A DNA stretch of 64,000 bases from Minisyncoccota bacterium (lineage in GTDB: Bacteria > Patescibacteriota > Minisyncoccia > Phycocordibacterales > UBA2100), in contig DATDXU010000005.1 in the NCBI GenBank assembly GCA_036517195.1, positions 4,975 to 68,974 of the forward strand, written 5' to 3'. Shown here in pieces: positions 4,833 to 60,759 of the stretch. The notes beneath the pieces were generated by a model, which did no database searches, was not told the origin of the DNA, and worked only from the letters and a program-made list of their open reading frames with translations. Position 1 is the stretch's first letter; the number at the start of each line of letters is the position of its first letter. Position numbers and translations under genes: made by a program.

Positions 4833-5429
4833 ATGAGCGCGGGTAAAGTAACAGCCATTCTTGTTGCTGGAGTCTTCGCCCTTGGAGCCCTGGCATGTGC
4901 CATAGGCTTTATTGGTGCCTGGAATCTTGGCAACAGGCTAGAACAGGGAGTCCATGCGTCCTGGGAAAACAACAAACAAATCCTAGGGCAGTATGGGCAA
5001 AAAATCCAAGAAATGGCGCAGGTGCCGGAAATACAGCGGGACGACTTGATCGCCGTTTTCACCAAAGCGAACGAGTCGCGGTATGGGAAAACGGGGTCAG
5101 CCGCGGTGGTGCAGTGGATCCAAGAACAAAATCCGAACTTGGACCCCTCTACGTACAAGGGAATTCAGCAGGCGATCGAGGCCGGTCGAAATGAATTTCA
5201 GGCGGCGCAACAGACAATAACCGACAAAAAGCGCGCCTATAGAACGGAACTCGGCTCGCTTTGGGGCGGGTTCTGGCTAAAGATGGCTGGATACCCAACT
5301 ATCAAGATTGGGTATCCGATCGGCACAGAGGATGCATATCCGGTTATCTCGACCTCGAGAGCCGATGATGCATTCAAGAAGGGTCGGGAGGATGCCCCCC
5401 TGAAGTTGCGCCCGCAAGAACCAAAGTAA
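4833..5429 (+). CDS. Hypothetical membrane-anchored protein, weakly LemA-like
   Basis: An N-terminal TM helix followed by a helical domain. The sequence AWN...SW loosely resembles the LemA paralog at 31490. Its start overlaps the stop of the upstream ORF. Confidence 0.35.
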   Translation: MSAGKVTAILVAGVFALGALACAIGFIGAWNLGNRLEQGVHASWENNKQILGQYGQKIQEMAQVPEIQRDDLIAVFTKANESRYGKTGSAAVVQWIQEQNPNLDPSTYKGIQQAIEAGRNEFQAAQQTITDKKRAYRTELGSLWGGFWLKMAGYPTIKIGYPIGTEDAYPVISTSRADDAFKKGREDAPLKLRPQEPK

Positions 5430-5446
5430 GCAACACATCGAATGTG

Positions 5447-5484
5447 GCGCCGCGGGCAACACCCCGCGGCGTTTTTATTTTTTG
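5447..5484 (+). terminator. Rho-independent terminator
   Basis: GC stem GCCGCGGG / CCCGCGGC followed by TTTTTATTTTTTG. Confidence 0.55.
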
Positions 5485-5544
5485 TCCTCGCAGGGAGTGA
5501 TGTTTTAGTGTATCCACGCACCAAAGGATCACCGCGTTATATAA

Positions 5545-5579
5545 GGCGGTATTAGATCCTTGGTGCGGGATTCCGCACC
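5545..5579. repeat. Copy A of a palindromic repeat family with core GGTGCGGGATTYCGCACC
   Basis: Related copies lie at 30800-30833 and 60629-60662. The internal inverted repeat is GGTGCGG/CCGCACC. Confidence 0.5.
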
Positions 5580-5653
5580 GCGAGCAAGCTTTTGGGCTTT
5601 GTTACAAACGTTTGGTATCATGAGCTTGCTCGCGGTGCTTCATTTTAATTCTT

Positions 5654-5704
5654 TGCGGGATCATCTAGTGGTAGGACTTCTCCCTCTGGAGGAGAGTATC
5701 TTGG
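5654..5704 (+). pseudogene. Truncated tRNA-Gln-like fragment (5' 51 nt, D-arm and anticodon arm only)
   Basis: Matches the first 51 nt of the intact tRNA-Gln at 5774 with 2 mismatches, then diverges. It has no T-arm and no acceptor 3' strand. Confidence 0.5.
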
Positions 5705-5773
5705 CCCGCCCCGTTAGATATTTTTGTAGAATACGCGGTTGATACTACAATACACACAGCTTGTTTCCATCGC

Positions 5774-5844
5774 TGCGGGATCGTCTAACGGTAGGACTTC
5801 TCCCTCTGGAGGAGAGTATCTTGGTTCGAGTCCAAGTCCCGCAG
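5774..5844 (+). tRNA. tRNA-Gln (anticodon CTG)
   Basis: Hand-folded cloverleaf with acceptor TGCGGGA/TCCCGCA, anticodon loop CTCTGGA and T-arm CTTGG-TTCGAGT-CCAAG. Confidence 0.75.
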
Positions 5845-5900
5845 CGATGGGCGTAAGCATGCAGATGCCAGTAGTATATGTATATCTAACGGGGTGAAAA

Positions 5901-5915
5901 TCCAAGTCCCGCAGC
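5901..5915 (+). repeat. 15-nt duplicate of the tRNA-Gln 3' end (TCCAAGTCCCGCAGC)
   Basis: Identical to 5831-5845. It abuts the left direct repeat of the islet. Confidence 0.6.
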
Positions 5916-5950
5916 CAGGTTTGAGATAGGTTCGGACTCCGAGGAGCATT
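5912..5950. repeat. Left direct repeat of the islet (CAGCCAGGTTTGAGATAGGTTCGGACTCCGAGGAGCATT)
   Basis: Repeated at 7574-7610 with a single 1-nt indel. Confidence 0.75.
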
Positions 5951-5957
5951 AAAAACT

Positions 5958-6341
5958 ATGAATAATCAAAACAAAGAACCTTGGCAAATAACAGCAGCTC
6001 GGTTTTGCGTAGAGAGAAAAGAGTTTACCTTAAGGGGGTTGGAGACTTTTTTGAAGGAAGAACCGTACAACATTCCTCACGAACACGTAAGAAATTTTTT
6101 CATAGAAAATATTCAAAATCCTCCAGGGCGACAATTCAACAGAGATTTTCGAAAGAGTGCCGAAGGAGAAGGTGGATTGTGGACTGCTCCTTCTGACCTT
6201 GTATCCATGGTGACAGATTATGATGAATTGAGAGAGGCAAGAGAGAGTAGTAGAAAGGCAATGTATATTGCAATCGGGTCTTTGATCGTTGCTACACTAG
6301 TTGGCATTGCTCAAATCATTGTACAGATTTATTACAAATAA
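5958..6341 (+). CDS. Hypothetical protein with a C-terminal TM anchor
   Basis: 127-aa ORF in the islet. The C-terminal hydrophobic helix is IAIGSLIVATLVGIAQIIV. Confidence 0.4.
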   Translation: MNNQNKEPWQITAARFCVERKEFTLRGLETFLKEEPYNIPHEHVRNFFIENIQNPPGRQFNRDFRKSAEGEGGLWTAPSDLVSMVTDYDELREARESSRKAMYIAIGSLIVATLVGIAQIIVQIYYK

Positions 6342-6345
6342 CTTT

Positions 6346-6783
6346 ATGAAGATAATTACTAAAAAGGAATCTGGCAATTCAGGAGAGCAAGAGATTGTAG
6401 ACCTTATCCCATGTCCGAATTGCGGGAAGAAATTGATGAAACTTCCATCAAACTATCCTTTATATGATGTCCAGTGCACTGGGTGTTCATTCCGTGCTCA
6501 AGTTAAAACAAATCAAAGTAAACCAAAATCAGTAGTTTTTGGAGCCGGGTGGCAAATTATGAACAAGGTATTGAAGTCTGGTTATATGACACCACCTCTT
6601 TTTCTAAACTTTAAATGGACAGAGAAAGATGATCAAAAACAAGAAGTCAGATTTTACCCCTTCGTGCCAAAGAAAAATCTCTCTAACTATCGTTTGTCTG
6701 CAACAGCACGTCGTGCAAATTATGAAATGTTTACCTATACGGGAATGGATAAGCTTCCGTATTTTCTAGTATATAAAAAATGA
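6346..6783 (+). CDS. Hypothetical zinc-ribbon protein
   Basis: CPNCGKK...x16...CTGCSF is a pair of CxxC motifs. It overlaps the next ORF by 4 bp (ATGA). Confidence 0.4.
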   Translation: MKIITKKESGNSGEQEIVDLIPCPNCGKKLMKLPSNYPLYDVQCTGCSFRAQVKTNQSKPKSVVFGAGWQIMNKVLKSGYMTPPLFLNFKWTEKDDQKQEVRFYPFVPKKNLSNYRLSATARRANYEMFTYTGMDKLPYFLVYKK

Positions 6784-7478
6784 ACAAGATTCAGGATGAC
6801 ATATTAAGTTATCGTGAGATGTGTGACGCAGAAAATATACAGACACTCCAGCGCGGTATGAATTTTCGAATGAAACCAACATACTCTGTTATTTTGATGT
6901 CTCAAAGATCAAACGCACCGTATCAAGATAGAATTCACGAAGACGGCATAACGATTGAATATGAGGGTCACGATGTTTCTAAAAGAGCTCACGACCATAA
7001 TCCAAAGGCCGAGGATCAGCCAGACAAGTTACCGAGTGGTCGATTAACTCAAAATGGATATTTCATAAAAGCCGCTAAAGACTATAAGGAAAGAGGAACT
7101 GCCCCAGAGTTGGTAAAAGTATATGAAAAGGTATTTCCCGGCGTGTGGTCTCTAAAGGGATTTTTTGATCTAATAGATTACAAAATATTTAATGATGGAA
7201 AACGTAATACGTTTCGTTATATTTTAAGACTTTCTGATCATGGAGAGACGGACACGAGGGTACCGACAAACATCGAACATACTCGCCTAATACCTTCAGA
7301 TGTAAAAAGAGAAGTTTGGAAACGGGATCAGGGTAAATGTGTAATCTGTGGAAATTCTAAGAATTTACACTTCGACCATGATTTACCATTTTCTAGGGGT
7401 GGAACCAGTTTATCAGCAAAGAATGTACGCCTGCTTTGTGTGACTCATAATCTTCAGAAATCAGATAAAATTGAATAG
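6780..7478 (+). CDS. Predicted modification-dependent (type IV-like) restriction endonuclease with an N-terminal SRA/YDG-like domain and a C-terminal HNH nuclease
   Basis: The C-terminus CVICGNSKNLHFDHDLPFSRGG...NVRLLCVTHN is an HNH His-Me finger. The N-terminal block YSVILMS...YQDRIHEDGITIEYEGHD plus VKVYEKVFPGVWSLKGFFDLIDYKI resembles the SRA motifs [26 protein letters not shown] and RYDGIYKVV. This comparison was made from memory, with no search. Confidence 0.55.
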   Translation: MNKIQDDILSYREMCDAENIQTLQRGMNFRMKPTYSVILMSQRSNAPYQDRIHEDGITIEYEGHDVSKRAHDHNPKAEDQPDKLPSGRLTQNGYFIKAAKDYKERGTAPELVKVYEKVFPGVWSLKGFFDLIDYKIFNDGKRNTFRYILRLSDHGETDTRVPTNIEHTRLIPSDVKREVWKRDQGKCVICGNSKNLHFDHDLPFSRGGTSLSAKNVRLLCVTHNLQKSDKIE

Positions 7479-7573
7479 TTGCTCGTTCCTGAAGAGCATC
7501 AAAATAGTAAACTTAAAAGCGTCAGAAAAGCTTTATGGGGTCTCACTTTGAAAAATACGAGACCGAAGGGGTC

Positions 7574-7610
7574 AGCCAGTTTGAGATAGGTTCGGACTCC
7601 GAGGAGCATT
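7574..7610. repeat. Right direct repeat of the islet
   Basis: CAGCCAG-TTTGAGATAGGTTCGGACTCCGAGGAGCATT matches 5912-5950. Confidence 0.75.
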
Positions 7611-10312: not shown

Positions 10313-10338
10313 TTCTAGCTTTTTGCAAAAAGCTAGAA
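10313..10338. promoter_or_regulatory. Perfect 12-2-12 palindrome TTCTAGCTTTTT-GC-AAAAAGCTAGAA (site 1), a putative ArsR-family operator upstream of the regulator gene
   Basis: Identical 26-mers occur at 10603-10628 and 58939-58964. A 12-2-12 dyad is the classic operator architecture for ArsR/SmtB regulators. Confidence 0.55.
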
Positions 10339-10355
10339 TATAATGACGTACACAT

Positions 10356-10631
10356 ATGGCGCAAGAAAAATATCGCGTGTTGGAACGGATTATAAAAGGT
10401 TTTGCGAACCATCGGCGGCTCGCAATTCTTGATTTGTTGAAAAAGAGGCCAGAGCAGACTCTCGACGATATTGTGGAGACACTCGGCATTGGGTACCAAA
10501 ACGCATCGGATCATGTGCGCAAACTTGCGATTGCGGGTCTCGTGGCAAAGCGTAGTGACGGCTTGAATGTGCGACACAAACTTACGCCACGCGCAGAAAC
10601 CATTCTAGCTTTTTGCAAAAAGCTAGAATAA
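10356..10631 (+). CDS. ArsR/SmtB-family HTH transcriptional regulator
   Basis: The 91-aa protein has an HRRLAILDLL...LDDIVETLGIGYQNASDHVRKL winged helix. Confidence 0.7.
   Translation: MAQEKYRVLERIIKGFANHRRLAILDLLKKRPEQTLDDIVETLGIGYQNASDHVRKLAIAGLVAKRSDGLNVRHKLTPRAETILAFCKKLE
10603..10628. promoter_or_regulatory. Palindrome site 2, overlapping the last codons and stop of the ArsR-like gene and upstream of a small Cys-rich ORF
   Basis: Identical 26-mer. The stop codon TAA lies at 10629-10631. Confidence 0.5.
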
Positions 10632-30726: not shown

Positions 30727-30749
30727 ATAAGGGGTGATGAAAAATGAAG

Positions 30750-30776
30750 CACCACGGGCGAGTCCGTGGTGTTTTA
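30750..30776 (+). terminator. Rho-independent terminator after groEL
   Basis: CACCACGG-gcgagt-CCGTGGTG followed by TTTT. Confidence 0.6.
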
Positions 30777-30799
30777 GAGTTTACAGCAAAACCTAAATA

Positions 30800-30833
30800 C
30801 TTGTCCGTGGTGCGGAATCCCGCACCGAGGACC
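30800..30833. repeat. Palindromic repeat family copy B (reverse orientation of the copy at 60629)
   Basis: CTTGTCCGTGGTGCGGAATCCCGCACCGAGGACC is the reverse complement of 60629-60662 except for 1-2 nt. Confidence 0.55.
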
Positions 30834-30933
30834 AGTTCATTTGTGTGTACACTGGTGGTCCTCTGGTGCGTGGAAGAAGGCCGCCCTGTGAGATAGCGAG
30901 CTTTGTGAGCTCAATCTCATAGGACGGTTTTCG

Positions 30934-32050: not shown

Positions 32051-32972
32051 TTGTGTGGAGAAGAATAGAGACGTATTAGGAAGAGAAAACAAAAAGACGG
32101 GTATTTCTCGTCGCACACTTCTCATAGGAGTTTCTGCTGTGGCGGGAGCGACTCTCGGTGGCGTTATCGCACATAGGGCGTTTTCGCCAAAGGAAACCAA
32201 GACCGATTTTCCAAAAAAAACTCCGACGCTCAGTCCAGAGAAAATTCCTACGAGCATTGATCGGGTACATGCAGAGATAGAACATGCGCGCATCCTCCTG
32301 TCTTCAAAAGACCCACTCGATGTTCTCAAAAGCACACATCTTGTGTCTGCCCTGTATTATTCCGACAGATTCCTTGCGTCTATTTTAAAATCAAGTGATA
32401 CGCCTGATGAATCACATGAAATCGTGCGCGGCATTGTCCCCCATATCACCACAGATGTTCGGCGGCGCTATGTGGAAGCTCTTTCAAAAGAGGCGTATAG
32501 AGCATTTGGCGAGCGATCCGAAGAGAAGCGCTCGCTCCCATTTCCGAAGTTAGATTTTGGACGAGGGGACAATCATCCTGATGCAGTGGATATTTTTGCG
32601 CGAGAGGGAACTAAAATCGCCTCTGTTCGAAGGGGTGTCGTTGTTTTGGCGGAATCCGGTTGGACCGAAAAGAATCCGTATCTTGGAACTTCTCCAAGGG
32701 GTGGAAACACAGCTATCGTTTTTAATCAGGATTCCAAACAGTTTTATCGGTATGCTCATCTCGATAGGGTTTCTATACGTACCGGAGAGGTGATAGGGGC
32801 GGGGCATTCCATAGGAACCGTTGGGAGAACTGGCATCAACGCTTTTCAAAATCGTAGCGCCAGTCATGTGCATCTGGAAATTAATGCATATACTCCAGCA
32901 ACACAGGGTATGAGATCGCTCTCGTCTCATGAAGTTAAACAAGAGATTCAAAAAATTAATTCAAATTCGTAA
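32001..32972 (+). CDS. M23 family metallopeptidase (LytM-like); the start is uncertain
   Basis: The C-terminal HxxxD...HVHLEIN Zn-binding motifs (GAGHSIGTVGRTG...SHVHLE). Confidence 0.65.
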   Translation: MERVRWPQKNQLQSSFNCVEKNRDVLGRENKKTGISRRTLLIGVSAVAGATLGGVIAHRAFSPKETKTDFPKKTPTLSPEKIPTSIDRVHAEIEHARILLSSKDPLDVLKSTHLVSALYYSDRFLASILKSSDTPDESHEIVRGIVPHITTDVRRRYVEALSKEAYRAFGERSEEKRSLPFPKLDFGRGDNHPDAVDIFAREGTKIASVRRGVVVLAESGWTEKNPYLGTSPRGGNTAIVFNQDSKQFYRYAHLDRVSIRTGEVIGAGHSIGTVGRTGINAFQNRSASHVHLEINAYTPATQGMRSLSSHEVKQEIQKINSNS

Positions 32973-32977
32973 TTGTA

Positions 32978-33107
32978 TGAATCCCGTTAGAAGTCGCGGA
33001 CGCATGCGAGAGGGGGTGTATACACATAAGTTTTGTGTTATACACTAATCGAGTGGGGGTGTGGAAATTTAAGTTTTTCCGCGTCCTACTTCTAAACGGG
33101 ATGAATA
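32978..33107. repeat. MITE-like element copy E1 (about 130 bp, terminal inverted repeats TGAATCCCGTTAGAAGTCGCGGACGC / CCGCGTCCTACTTCTAAACGGGATGAAT)
   Basis: It is homologous, in inverted orientation, to the copy at 44831-44956. Its right end overlaps the htpX start codon. Confidence 0.55.
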
Positions 33108-44830: not shown

Positions 44831-44956
44831 CTCATCCCGTTTTAAGTAGGACGCGGAAACACACATCACTCCACATCCTCTCGGTTAGTGTTTGTAATTA
44901 TCGACTTGTTTCACATGTATCTGACGCATGCGTCCGCGACTTCTAACGGGACTCAT
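44831..44956. repeat. MITE-like element copy E3 (homologous to E1, opposite orientation)
   Basis: Right end CGCATGCGTCCGCGACTTCTAACGGGACTCAT is the reverse complement of the E1 left end at 30/31 nt. The left end CTCATCCCGTTTTAAGTAGGACGCGGA matches the E1 right end. The interior shares CACTAAYCGAG..GTGGA. Confidence 0.55.
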
Positions 44957-45199
44957 ACTATCGATGAGGTACACCCCGCAGTAGATGGTGGCGAATGAAT
45001 ACACTCGCGCTTGTGATGCCACACCAACCGCAGTGTACAGGAACAGTATAAGATAGTAATAATTAAATTTCCACTTCTCGCGTGTTCACATTTTGAACAA
45101 TTTCTGTACAAGAAAATCACAAACTGCTCTTGTACAATGATACACCGCCCGTGGTGAGAAGTATCGCCACCATTCACTGACGGGGTACAATTATACTGT

Positions 45200-46246: not shown

Positions 46247-46344
46247 GCCTTTTTCTCCTACATCCACAGGTTCAGTTCTAATCTTGATGCAGTATAAACC
46301 AAATTTTATTATTGTCAACTTTTGTGCGGGCACGGAGAATCCCT

Positions 46345-46363
46345 GCCTGCCGGCAGGCAGGGA
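46345..46363. repeat. Palindrome CCTGCCTGCCGGCAGGCAGG (copy 1), next to tRNA-Gly
   Basis: A second copy lies at 55689-55707 next to tRNA-Val. Confidence 0.5.
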
Positions 46364-46376
46364 ACTCATATTTTGA

Positions 46377-46447
46377 TGCGAGTGGGGGGAATCGAACCCC
46401 CATCTAATGCTTGGGAAGCATTCATTCTGCCACTAAACTACACTCGC
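46377..46447 (-). tRNA. tRNA-Gly (anticodon CCC)
   Basis: Minus-strand cloverleaf with acceptor GCGAGTG/CACTCGC, anticodon loop TTCCCAA and T-loop TTCGATT. Confidence 0.8.
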
Positions 46448-46493: not shown

Positions 46494-46528
46494 GCGGGGC
46501 ATTCATTCTGCCACTAAACTATGCCCGC
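46494..46528 (-). pseudogene. Partial copy of the tRNA-Gly 5' half (acceptor, D-arm and anticodon stem)
   Basis: GCGGGCATAGTTTAGTGGCAGAATGAATGC matches tRNA-Gly positions 1-30 with few changes and has no 3' half. Confidence 0.45.
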
Positions 46529-46929: not shown

Positions 46930-46991
46930 GCGAAGCGACACGAGAGCGCAACGCCTGAGCGTTGCGCGTGCAGGAATCGAACGCCGGAGCC

Positions 46992-47015
46992 CTGTCACGC
47001 AAGCTTGCGGGACAG
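46992..47015. repeat. Palindrome CTGTCACGCAAGCTTGCGGGACAG (core CCCGCAAGCTTGCGGG), copy 1
   Basis: The same core occurs at 58074-58093 next to tRNA-Glu. A further palindrome GTCCCGCTTGAGCGGGAC lies at 47036-47053. Confidence 0.45.
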
Positions 47016-47066
47016 CGAGGCGGTGCCCAACCCGAGTCCCGCTTGAGCGGGACGAGAGGTGAGGGG

Positions 47067-47084
47067 GATTCCTGTCGAGGGGAG
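47067..47084 (+). repeat. Duplicate of the tRNA-Arg 3' end (GATTCCTGTCGAGGGGA) about 140 bp downstream of the tRNA
   Basis: It matches 46913-46929, and the intervening 137 bp is GC-rich and full of palindromes. Confidence 0.45.
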
Positions 47085-47165
47085 TGAATTTGAGTTTTAC
47101 ACAGTCACCCATAGACACTGGAATGTCCGTAGTATCATTATGATATTACTAAGTAGCTACATTAT

Positions 47166-47708: not shown

Positions 47709-47760
47709 AGTTGCCCAGATAGCCAAGGGGCAGGTAGATAGTTAGAGCATGCGATCGGTG
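47709..47760 (+). pseudogene. Degenerate partial copy of the tRNA-Phe 5' part
   Basis: TAGTTGCCCAGATAGC-CAAGGGGCAGGTAGATAGTTAGAGCAT against TAGTTGCCCAGATAGCTCAGGTAGTTAGAGCAT of the intact gene. Confidence 0.4.
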
Positions 47761-47768
47761 GTGTAGTT

Positions 47769-47842
47769 GCCCAGATAGCTCAGGTAGTTAGAGCATTCCC
47801 CTGAAGAGGGAAGGGTGGTCAGTGCAAGTCTGACTCTGGGCA
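47769..47842 (+). tRNA. tRNA-Phe (anticodon GAA); T-loop reads TGCAAGT, with G at position 55
   Basis: Acceptor GCCCAGA/TCTGGGC, D-arm GCTC..GAGC and anticodon loop CTGAAGA. The T-loop is non-canonical. Confidence 0.65.
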
Positions 47843-47855
47843 CAAAGCGAGGTGA

Positions 47856-55688: not shown

Positions 55689-55707
55689 CCCTGCCTGCCG
55701 GCAGGCA
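55689..55707. repeat. Palindrome CTGCCTGCCGGCAGGCAGG (copy 2), about 65 bp upstream of tRNA-Val
   Basis: Matches 46345-46363. Confidence 0.5.
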
Positions 55708-55812
55708 GGTAAGCGCGCCATCGTACACCATTATACTTATTACTGTGAAAATGCTATAAAGCACGAGGTTCGTTGCTCGCTAGCAGGGCAATAATAGAGG
55801 AGAATACACACA

Positions 55813-57957: not shown

Positions 57958-58073
57958 GCTTTTATTTCTGGATTTGATTAAGGTCTTGTTTTGGCTTCGG
58001 ACCGAACCTTCTTTTTTGGTCACGGATAATTTAATCGCCGTCGCGATTAAATTTTCGCGACCCCGACTCGCCC

Positions 58074-58093
58074 GTCCCGCAAGCTTGCGGGAC
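58074..58093. repeat. Palindrome GTCCCGCAAGCTTGCGGGAC (copy 2), next to tRNA-Glu
   Basis: Shares the CCCGCAAGCTTGCGGG core with 46992-47015. A second inverted repeat GTCGCGA-N9-TCGCGAC lies at 58040-58066. Confidence 0.45.
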
Positions 58094-58153
58094 ATGGCTC
58101 TGTCCGTCACAAAAGAGCAAAACGCCCCGCAGGGGGCGTCTTTGCATCTTTTG

Positions 58154-58815: not shown

Positions 58816-58938
58816 TGTGTTGTGAGTATGGGGCGTGTGCGGGAGGAATCTCGCCACGCTCCATTTTTTATGGAATGTACTTTTCTTGAAATGGCCATAC
58901 ACTATATATAGTTTTGAAAAGGTATGAAAATTACACCA

Positions 58939-58964
58939 TTCTAGCTTTTTGCAAAAAGCTAGAA
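58939..58964. promoter_or_regulatory. Palindrome site 3, identical to the 26-mer at 10313, upstream of a secreted-protein gene
   Basis: Exact match to TTCTAGCTTTTTGCAAAAAGCTAGAA. Confidence 0.5.
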
Positions 58965-60540: not shown

Positions 60541-60628
60541 GAACACATGCGCTCCCCAAAAGGGGAGCGTTCTTCCACGCACCAGAGGACCAGGGGTTTA
60601 CTTACGGGGTTTACTTACGGACGAATGG

Positions 60629-60710
60629 GTCCTCGGTGCGGGATTTCGCACCACGGACAAGCTTTCGTATTTTGTCGTATGTCCAAATGGTATGAGCTTG
60701 TCCGTGGTGC
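60629..60710. repeat. Palindromic repeat family copy C plus a flanking inverted half-copy
   Basis: GGTCCTCGGTGCGGGATTTCGCACCACGGACAAGC, then 33 bp, then GCTTGTCCGTGGTGC. The tandem repeat GGGGTTTACTTAC x2 lies at 60593-60618. Confidence 0.5.
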
Positions 60711-60759
60711 TTCATTTTTACTGTGATAGAATCACACAATTATATAATCTAAAAAAGGT

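Follow-up and report, generated by a model that had tools for sequence, protein, structure and literature searches.

Transfer RNA genes are classic landing sites for mobile DNA. The 64,000-nucleotide stretch analysed here (the window), part of contig DATDXU010000005.1 of a Minisyncoccota bacterium, contains three pieces of tRNA-Gln sequence within positions 5640 to 5950. Are these the scars of separate events, or parts of a single structure? A preliminary description had listed an upstream 5' copy, an intact gene, and a downstream 3'-end copy, and had proposed repeated recombination or integration. ARAGORN, Rfam, and alignment confirm that all three pieces are real. The outer pieces are not independent scars but belong to one old tRNA-Gln gene, of which they form the 5' and 3' halves, and the intact gene lies between them. 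It is unusual for a complete tRNA to lie within the T loop of its dead predecessor, and the arrangement adds a new form to the known cases of tRNA-targeted insertion and replacement of gene parts. The proposal of repeated integration holds in that the site is an insertion hot spot, with a nested insert and an adjoining 1.66-kb islet; it does not hold in the sense of three unrelated scars.

The nested tRNA-Gln genes

The locus has a single intact tRNA-Gln(CUG), at positions 5774 to 5845 on the plus strand. It is called with a CTG anticodon by ARAGORN and matches the Rfam tRNA model over its full length with 56 bits. At permissive E-values this is the sole Rfam match within the locus. Upstream, positions 5654 to 5704 (plus strand) are a direct copy of positions 1 to 51 of the intact tRNA with three mismatches (94% identity), not the two first counted. 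All three are D-arm changes, and G10A among them disrupts a D-stem pair. The copy begins with the 5' acceptor strand and stops at position 51; the T arm is not wholly absent as had been stated, since the 5' strand of the T stem is present and ends in CTTGG.

Downstream, the last 15 nucleotides of the intact tRNA (5831 to 5845) recur exactly at 5901 to 5915, as noticed earlier, and this 15-mer occurs twice against 0.07 occurrences expected by chance. With the TTCGAAT T loop found in most relatives as the reference, the downstream copy lengthens to 17 nucleotides, AATCCAAGTCCCGCAGC, at 5899 to 5915 on the plus strand, taking in the last bases of the T loop, the 3' strands of the T stem and the acceptor stem, and the discriminator, and colinear with an uninterrupted relative (L019; loci used for comparison carry L numbers). 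The outer halves thus span positions 1 to 51 and about 56/58 to 72 of one tRNA, with approximately 3 to 6 nucleotides of the T loop missing. Between them lies one 196-bp block, the cassette (5705 to 5900), which contains the live tRNA.

The inner and outer copies can be told apart by sequence. The D arm is GTCTAACGG in the inner copy and ATCTAGTGG in the outer, and the inner T loop is TTCGAGT while the outer is derived from TTCGAAT, as in most relatives. With three D-arm positions and the T loop differing, the two are different alleles.

The cassette is marked by a perfect inverted repeat of 13 bp. Its right arm, ATATCTAACGGGG at 5882 to 5894, has an exact reverse complement in the left arm, CCCCGTTAGATAT at 5709 to 5721. 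The window contains no copy besides these two, against 0.04 expected, and none of 100 shuffles reaches two. The arms sit 4 nucleotides (left) and 6 nucleotides (right) from the cassette junctions and bound a unit of 186 bp. From left to right, the locus consists of outer tRNA positions 1 to 51, CCCG, the left arm, a 45-nucleotide spacer, a 7-bp flank helix around the intact tRNA, a 31-nucleotide spacer, the right arm, TGAAAA, and the outer tRNA from the end of its T loop to the discriminator. The flank helix (CCATCGC...GCGATGG) extends the inner acceptor stem to 14 bp (5767 to 5850, plus strand); its 14 nucleotides are fully complementary, and the structure recurs in folds.

The right arm had been called a solo terminal repeat of a miniature inverted-repeat transposable element (MITE). 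It is not solo, as its partner lies at 5709 to 5721. A MITE-type transposon that captured a tRNA and moved into the T loop could account for a perfect 13-bp inverted repeat around a 186-bp unit. The flanks of the repeat, CCCG and TGAAAA, form no target-site duplication, however, and no further copy of the repeat was found in the 64 kb or the related loci examined; because the window has only two copies, there is no support for a MITE family. The right arm also looks more like the decayed D arm of a tRNA than like the end of a transposon: it contains TCTAACGG, a D-loop string of tRNA-Gln, and L026 carries the same string, TCTAACGGGGG, within a decayed D arm. A transposon origin of this type is very unlikely.

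Both genes have promoter-like sequence ahead of them. The upstream flank of the old gene, TTTTAATTCTT (5640 to 5653, plus strand), holds a -10-like ATTCT adjoining the old tRNA start, and uninterrupted relatives have TATTCT or TATCCT about 9 nucleotides ahead of the tRNA. By this comparison, positions 5640 to 5653 may serve as the old gene's promoter. Within the cassette, the hexamers TTGTAG and TACAAT, separated by 16 nucleotides (5724 to 5751, plus strand; read by eye), lie 22 nucleotides upstream of the inner tRNA and form a weak candidate promoter for it.

Could the outer gene still be functional? Its halves might be joined as a tRNA with a T-loop intron or as a split tRNA held by the 13-bp helix, with the inner tRNA released from the intron. 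T-loop introns and split tRNAs occur in archaea, and the whole 262-nucleotide region folds as RNA into a nested cloverleaf-like structure with a z score of −5.05 (−5.5 for the cassette alone). The host is bacterial, however, with a bacterial RNase P RNA, FtsX, and RF-1/PCRF in or near the window, and the locus gave no match to a group I intron, a group II intron, or any Rfam family other than tRNA. The outer D stem is mismatched, and no bulge-helix-bulge was seen at the junctions by reading. A canonical T loop cannot be rebuilt from the outer halves because T54 to C56 are absent. This explanation is scarcely credible.

An assembly artefact can be ruled out. Four assemblies from different samples (L001, L014, L015, and L017) carry the full locus with at most a single base changed; in L017 one strain polymorphism falls in the outer 5' part. 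The left part is identical in three further assemblies (L010, L011, and L012), all of which end at one point within the cassette (window position 5761). The neighbouring genes for CTP synthase, a 198-aa protein, and a 225-aa protein have identical sequence on contigs of several other metagenome assemblies. A protein encoded nearby matches one of a Candidatus Paceibacterota metagenome-assembled genome at 100% identity, and the host is an uncultured, ultra-small member of the candidate phyla radiation (CPR).

A variant from another sample (L009) matches perfectly over approximately 500 nucleotides of flank and through the outer 5' fragment. Inside the cassette it has 10 mismatches in about 80 nucleotides (about 12%) and then diverges completely, which suggests that co-occurring strains differ in the cassette and not in its flanks. 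Both cassette spacers and the tail of this variant gave no BLAST match in about 160 related loci. In the same variant (L009:2780-2906, sample ERZ4903072), the inner tRNA-like sequence stops after position 16, possibly at a further D-loop insertion. Another contig of that sample (L016:1-40) reads G in place of C at the first position of the anticodon (window position 5806), 19 nucleotides from the contig start and probably a tip error.

Related tRNA-Gln loci and the contents of their cassettes

Which of the two copies is the older? A scan of a metagenome collection with the 28-nucleotide anticodon arm returned 21 related tRNA-Gln loci, about 17 of them distinct. In L019, the tRNA-Gln is uninterrupted and is directly followed by CAGTTTGAGATAGGTTCGGAGTCCGAG. 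The outer 3' fragment of the window, together with its downstream sequence, aligns with L019 base for base from AATCC onward. The same motif stands directly 3' of the tRNA-Gln, or of a displaced 3' fragment, in L019, L033, L037, and L072. On the 5' side, the outer fragment shares a 14-mer, ATTCTTTGCGGGAT, with the equivalent fragment junction in L018. On the evidence of these flanks, which match the contexts of L019 (3') and L018 (5'), the resident copy is the outer one, and the insert brought the inner gene with it; by this comparison, the outer tRNA-Gln is the ancestral gene.

Interruption recurs among these relatives. Fragments of the 5' end, the 3' end, or both are found in 8 to 9 of the 17 distinct loci, and the remainder are uninterrupted; both kinds are present in L030, L037, and the window. 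Tandem intact copies are absent from all 21 loci, since each has a single anticodon-arm match, so that the fragments do not correspond to functional tandem tRNAs in relatives.

The simplest route to a 5' fragment lying 120 nucleotides upstream of a near-identical gene (94% over 51 nucleotides) would be a local tandem duplication of the tRNA-Gln gene after which the first copy lost its 3' part, with the downstream 15-mer as an unrelated small duplication. It leaves unexplained why the 3' fragment continues almost exactly where the 5' fragment stops and why an inverted repeat lies beside both junctions, and none of the 21 loci offers the tandem genes that it starts from. The T loops of the two copies differ, and at the tRNA-Gly gene described below the whole acceptor stem differs with compensating changes, both pointing to different alleles. 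Duplication is therefore a rather improbable account.

The inserts on the 5' side share a layout. They open with GC-rich hairpins, and an A/T-rich stretch precedes the live tRNA. Several share their opening hexamer: the insert begins with CCCGCC in the window, L024, and L026, and L064 and L140 have TCCGCC. Three equivalent inserts have a small GIY-YIG open reading frame (ORF) between the 5' tRNA fragment and the live tRNA: one at tRNA-Gln in L032 (L032:971-1228 (-)) and two in L140 at tRNA-Glu and tRNA-Ser (L140:1795-2127 (-) and L140:2994-3356 (-)). Their Pfam E-values range from 7e-15 to 3e-11. Similar GIY-YIG ORFs lie directly beside tRNA-Gln in L021 (8363-8665 (-)) and L026 (799-1383 (-)). 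The 196-bp cassette of the window has no ORF and hence no endonuclease ORF inside the insert.

A LAGLIDADG_3 homing-endonuclease-like ORF (L001:630-1319) is present in the same genome, about 5 kb upstream of the window start. It adjoins a weak match (L001:1714-1846, 22 bits) to R1, a structured element described in the next section.

Insertions at other tRNA genes and elsewhere in the window

The tRNA-Gly(CCC) gene of the window is nested in the same way. On the minus strand, an outer 5' part (46499 to 46528) and an outer 3' part (46325 to 46340) enclose a hairpin, the live gene (46377 to 46447), and a perfect palindrome of 22 nucleotides. The outer halves share their own complementary acceptor stem, GCGGGCA/TGCCCGC, whereas the inner stem is GCGAGTG/CACTCGC. 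Because the outer stem is mutually complementary, the outer halves must once have formed a different functional tRNA-Gly. On these sequences, local duplication is hard to reconcile with the nesting.

Further fragments accompany other tRNAs in the window. The tRNA-Arg has a 17-nucleotide 3' repeat, and the tRNA-Val a 9-nucleotide 5' copy. Upstream of the tRNA-Phe (47769 to 47843, plus strand) is a 5' fragment at 47713 to 47750 containing positions 1 to 11 and 17 to 28, with a small GGGGCAGG-type insert in its D loop. The live tRNA-Phe has an unusual T loop, TGCAAGT, in place of TTCRANT. A perfect palindrome, CCCTGCCTGCCGGCAGGCAGG, is present twice (55689 to 55718 and 46341 to 46362), in each case adjoining a tRNA fragment, once the tRNA-Val 5' copy and once the 3' outer half of tRNA-Gly. 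Hairpins of similar form (CCTGCC...GGCAGG) lie within the 5' fragments of L024 and L032.

A wider sample was taken from CPR loci. It comprises 121 tRNAs and is biased toward fragment-bearing loci. Exact 5' fragments are present at 12 of the 121; all start at position 1 and end at positions 10 to 18, in the D loop. Fragments of the 3' end are present at 35, most of which start in the T loop at C56/G57. Breakpoints cluster in the D loop and the T loop. By these patterns, small insertions that leave tRNA fragments look like a common process around CPR tRNA genes.

These counts bear on the view that the tRNA-Gln locus consists of two separate site-specific integration scars, with the integrase located elsewhere or lost. 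In that case, a 3'-side element would have left 5846 to 5900 and displaced the 3' end at 5901 to 5915, and a 5'-side element carrying tRNA positions 1 to 51 and a promoter would have left 5705 to 5773 and displaced the 5' part at 5654 to 5704. Direct repeats from the T loop to the 3' end of a tRNA are a classic signature of integration into a tRNA gene, and they are abundant in the CPR loci, tandem arrays included. The adjacent islet (see below) is likewise bounded by 39-nucleotide direct repeats, and in archaea 5' fragments are split from an intact tRNA by a recombinase-bearing element (PMC3293823). Two scars would nevertheless share a perfect inverted repeat, one arm each, only by chance, with 0.04 copies expected. 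Both element bodies would have to shrink to 55 to 69 nucleotides yet keep exact junctions, the 5' fragments of relatives end in the D loop and not in the T loop, and no integrase was found among the flanking or islet ORFs. Two scars are thus an unlikely account, and a single inserted cassette is preferred.

A structured element, here called R1, emerged from the tRNA-Arg gene. The 137 nucleotides between this tRNA and its 3' repeat (46930 to 47066) resemble the insert that follows tRNA-Gln in L037. A pattern built from these two inserts was scanned against one genome per species and matched at least 120 stretches. At least about 45 among the matches listed are true members, with a gap of 22 to 25 nucleotides, and the rest are chance matches in high-GC genomes. 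The members listed are nearly all from the CPR (Saccharibacteria, Paceibacterota, and Kaiser-, Taylor-, Uhr-, Komeili-, Nomura-, Woese-, and Yanofskybacteria) and follow tRNAs of at least 14 isotypes.

R1 is approximately 125 nucleotides long with an optional upstream hairpin, and it separates an intact tRNA from a direct repeat of the last 15 to 21 nucleotides of that tRNA. In the window it is found at 46930 to 47085 (plus strand) and 57991 to 58118 (minus strand); further loci are L037 and those among L045 to L159. A covariance model gave 63 matches in 66 CPR loci, tandem arrays included, and in the window matched 46969 to 47093 (113 bits) and 57991 to 58118 (42 bits) and nowhere else.

The element forms a three-way junction. 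In an alignment of 39 sequences, pairing holds in 85.5% of cells, compared with 69% for shuffles and 37 to 43% with slid partners. Both sides change in 28 of the 38 pairs, and the covariation score is 0.44 versus 0.15 in shuffles. The structure is assigned to the tRNA-sense strand because G-U pairs outnumber A-C pairs in the internal helices (17 versus 4) and a tandem G-A/A-G pair is frequent. Ahead of the core, 32 of 38 copies have 10 to 16 nucleotides, typically 12 to 13, that are perfectly complementary to G53, the T loop, and the 3' strand of the T stem of the adjacent tRNA. An exact 9- to 21-nucleotide copy of that tRNA's 3' end then follows in 24 of the 38. In L072, L086, L092, and L117, R1 and the 3' tRNA fragment are well kept, and the upstream tRNA has decayed past recognition by ARAGORN.

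Rfam has no match to R1, and no description of it was found in the literature; at permissive E-values, the tRNA-Arg, -Gly, and -Phe region and six related loci gave only tRNAs. Several further readings of R1 were considered. The tRNA-Gln cassette is not a member, as the model has no match in 5400 to 6000. Recent spread within a genome is unsupported, as the R1 copies of one genome diverge throughout and keep the structure through compensating changes. A phage origin is without support because the three matches in a scan of viral contigs have gaps of 19, 29, and 43 nucleotides, outside the range of true members. A TnpB/IS605-like system, with a scaffold, a flank-derived guide, and GTTC as the adjacent motif, was set aside, as the regenerated tRNA would itself be targeted and the putative guide is paired in helix P1.

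Directly after the tRNA-Gln locus comes the islet. Its left repeat (5912 to 5950, plus strand) is the motif CAG(G)TTTGAGATAGGTTCGGACTCCGAGGAGCATT, which includes the palindrome CGGACTCCG and is conserved after tRNA-Gln in relatives from several CPR lineages. The islet proper (5951 to 7571, plus strand) has three ORFs, encoding a 127-aa protein, a DpnI-like nuclease-domain protein (Pfam DpnI, 4.9e-10; PADLOC mREase_II, a methyl-directed restriction enzyme, 2.4e-7), and a 232-aa protein with weak similarity to HNH (E about 1e-3, below the cut-off). A second copy of the motif forms the right direct repeat (7572 to 7610, plus strand). The repeats agree exactly over 32 nucleotides (5919 to 5950 and 7579 to 7610), bearing out the islet repeat seen earlier beside the 3' copy, and over 39 nucleotides with one indel; about 1.66 kb lies between them. 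No integrase or recombinase family was matched among the flanking or islet ORFs. The islet represents a further insertion at this hot spot, distinct from the cassette and bounded by duplicated conserved sequence.

Three other repeats were noted in the window. A structured element of about 160 nucleotides has three copies, each just after a gene end, at 5490 to 5650 (plus strand), 30740 to 30900 (minus strand), and 60550 to 60720 (plus strand). It has a terminator-like hairpin of 14 to 16 bp that shows compensating changes and ends in a run of T, and it has no Rfam match. The first copy ends 8 nucleotides before the outer tRNA-Gln. Inverted repeats at 32972 to 33091 and 44844 to 44961, with segments of 37 nucleotides (95%) and 35 nucleotides (77%), bracket about 11.9 kb that could be a transposon or an invertible segment. 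A 27-nucleotide palindrome, TTCTAGCTTTTTGCAAAAAGCTAGAA(T), is present three times (10313 to 10339, 10602 to 10628, and 58938 to 58964) inside 39-nucleotide repeats.

A proposed mechanism and comparison with known systems

The explanation favoured here, with somewhat better than even confidence and whatever the enzyme, is replacement by a single cassette. A 196-bp cassette would have entered the T loop of an ancestral tRNA-Gln(CUG) in one event and split it, supplying a complete, slightly different tRNA-Gln(CUG), perhaps with its own promoter. The cassette tRNA would now do the work, and the outer halves would be a dead, drifting pseudogene. The cassette may have persisted because the host loses nothing. 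More generally, small selfish insertions would enter CPR tRNA genes through either the D or the T loop and persist by replacing what they displace, whether one end of the gene (3' or 5') or all of it. The tRNA-Gln and tRNA-Gly of the window would be cases of whole-gene replacement.

As the most likely engine, a homing-type endonuclease acting in trans would begin a repair in which the cassette is copied into the broken tRNA gene; the window cassette itself would presumably be mobile. The GIY-YIG cargo of equivalent cassettes, the variation in presence and absence among relatives, and the mosaic strain variant speak for a nuclease. The alternative engine, a site-specific recombinase acting in trans, fits the repeats from the T loop to the 3' end and the tandem arrays.

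Several points weigh against replacement by a single cassette. At the left junction, CTTGG/CCCG, T54 to C56 are replaced or lost, so that the interruption is not clean. An intact tRNA regenerated beside a homing cassette would keep any target lying wholly within the tRNA, which is awkward. The 13-bp inverted repeat has no assigned role. A promoter scan of the plus strand of the locus found nothing convincing; the hexamers at 5724 to 5751 fall under its threshold because the first fits at just three of six positions. No nuclease, integrase, or transposase gene was found in or beside the cassette, and no second copy of the cassette or its spacers in the window or about 160 related loci. Finally, no close relative was found whose orthologous site is empty: a scan of genome contigs with the 363-aa neighbour protein returned no relative, exact-protein look-ups gave no match, and in the nearest syntenic relatives (about 62 to 65% protein identity) no tRNA follows the conserved gene pair.

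A broader proposal is offered tentatively and is possible rather than probable. The CPR may host undescribed, miniature (about 65 to 350 bp), mostly protein-less invaders of tRNA genes that enter one of the two loops of the tRNA elbow, the D loop near G18/G19 or the T loop at C56/G57, and carry the displaced part or a whole replacement tRNA. R1 would be a subclass whose tRNA-complementary segment would fit target choice by base pairing and not through a sequence-specific protein, and the tRNA-Gln cassette would be a member of the whole-gene-replacement kind. The D- and T-loop micro-insertions of the CPR, together with R1, are a more interesting lead than the tRNA-Gln locus itself.

If the pattern holds, tRNA genes of reduced CPR genomes would be replaced horizontally, cassette after cassette, and the loci would be a compact test of how selfish elements neutralise their own cost. 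Fragments near live genes would also confuse tRNA counts, callers of attachment (att) sites, and assemblers; several assemblies break inside the tRNA-Gln cassette. R1, standing beside many CPR tRNAs, is a concrete candidate for experiments on its targeting or its function as an RNA.

Literature searches turned up no account of insertions into the tRNA genes of CPR bacteria; known work on CPR insertions concerns rRNA genes (PMC11270868). The closest known systems are compared here. The cassette is short, non-coding, and bounded by inverted repeats like a MITE, but it lacks a target-site duplication, has no other copies found, and carries a functional tRNA as cargo.

Integrative elements that use tyrosine-integrase att sites at the T-loop sublocation share the T-loop breakpoint, the repeat to the 3' end, the piling up of several elements at one tRNA, and the adjoining repeat-bounded islet. 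Unlike them, the tRNA-Gln insert has no integrase, measures 196 bp instead of kilobases, and is bounded by inverted repeats. Such elements duplicate only the part distal to the crossover, whereas here positions 1 to 51 are duplicated as well and a whole tRNA lies inside the old one. A tRNA-Thr fragment of the archaeon Caldiarchaeum (PMC3293823) offers the same order of 5' fragment, foreign DNA, and intact copy and also varies in the population. That element differs in being 1.8 kb long, recombinase-encoding, multi-copy, archaeal, and tied to intron gain (PMC3293823).

SegB of phage T4 is a GIY-YIG nuclease that drives inheritance of a tRNA region (PMC2330249). Like the cassettes of relatives, it associates a GIY-YIG nuclease with tRNA genes, but it is a free-standing phage gene that lies among tRNA genes, and it involves neither nesting nor duplication of tRNA fragments (PMC2330249).

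Mobile ORFs (mORFs) of fungal mitochondria encode endonucleases and insert together with a foreign gene end, leaving the native end as a silent remnant; cases are atp6 of Allomyces and atp6, atp9, cox2, and nad3 of Glomus (PMC3630166). Like the cassette, they insert in an essential gene, the foreign copy keeps the function, and a divergent native remnant lies nearby. Their cargo is GIY-YIG or LAGLIDADG, and GIY-YIG is likewise found in the L032 and L140 cassettes. They differ in hitting mitochondrial protein genes and replacing one end, whereas in the window a bacterial tRNA gene is replaced whole by an insert without an ORF. The tRNA cassettes are 65 to 350 bp long, and cleavage of a target is putative for them. 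Two hallmarks of mORFs recur at tRNA-Gln: about half of the 17 related loci are interrupted and half intact, and a functional foreign copy accompanies a native remnant, with the inner gene intact, the outer gene colinear with the uninterrupted L019, and the two copies different in sequence.

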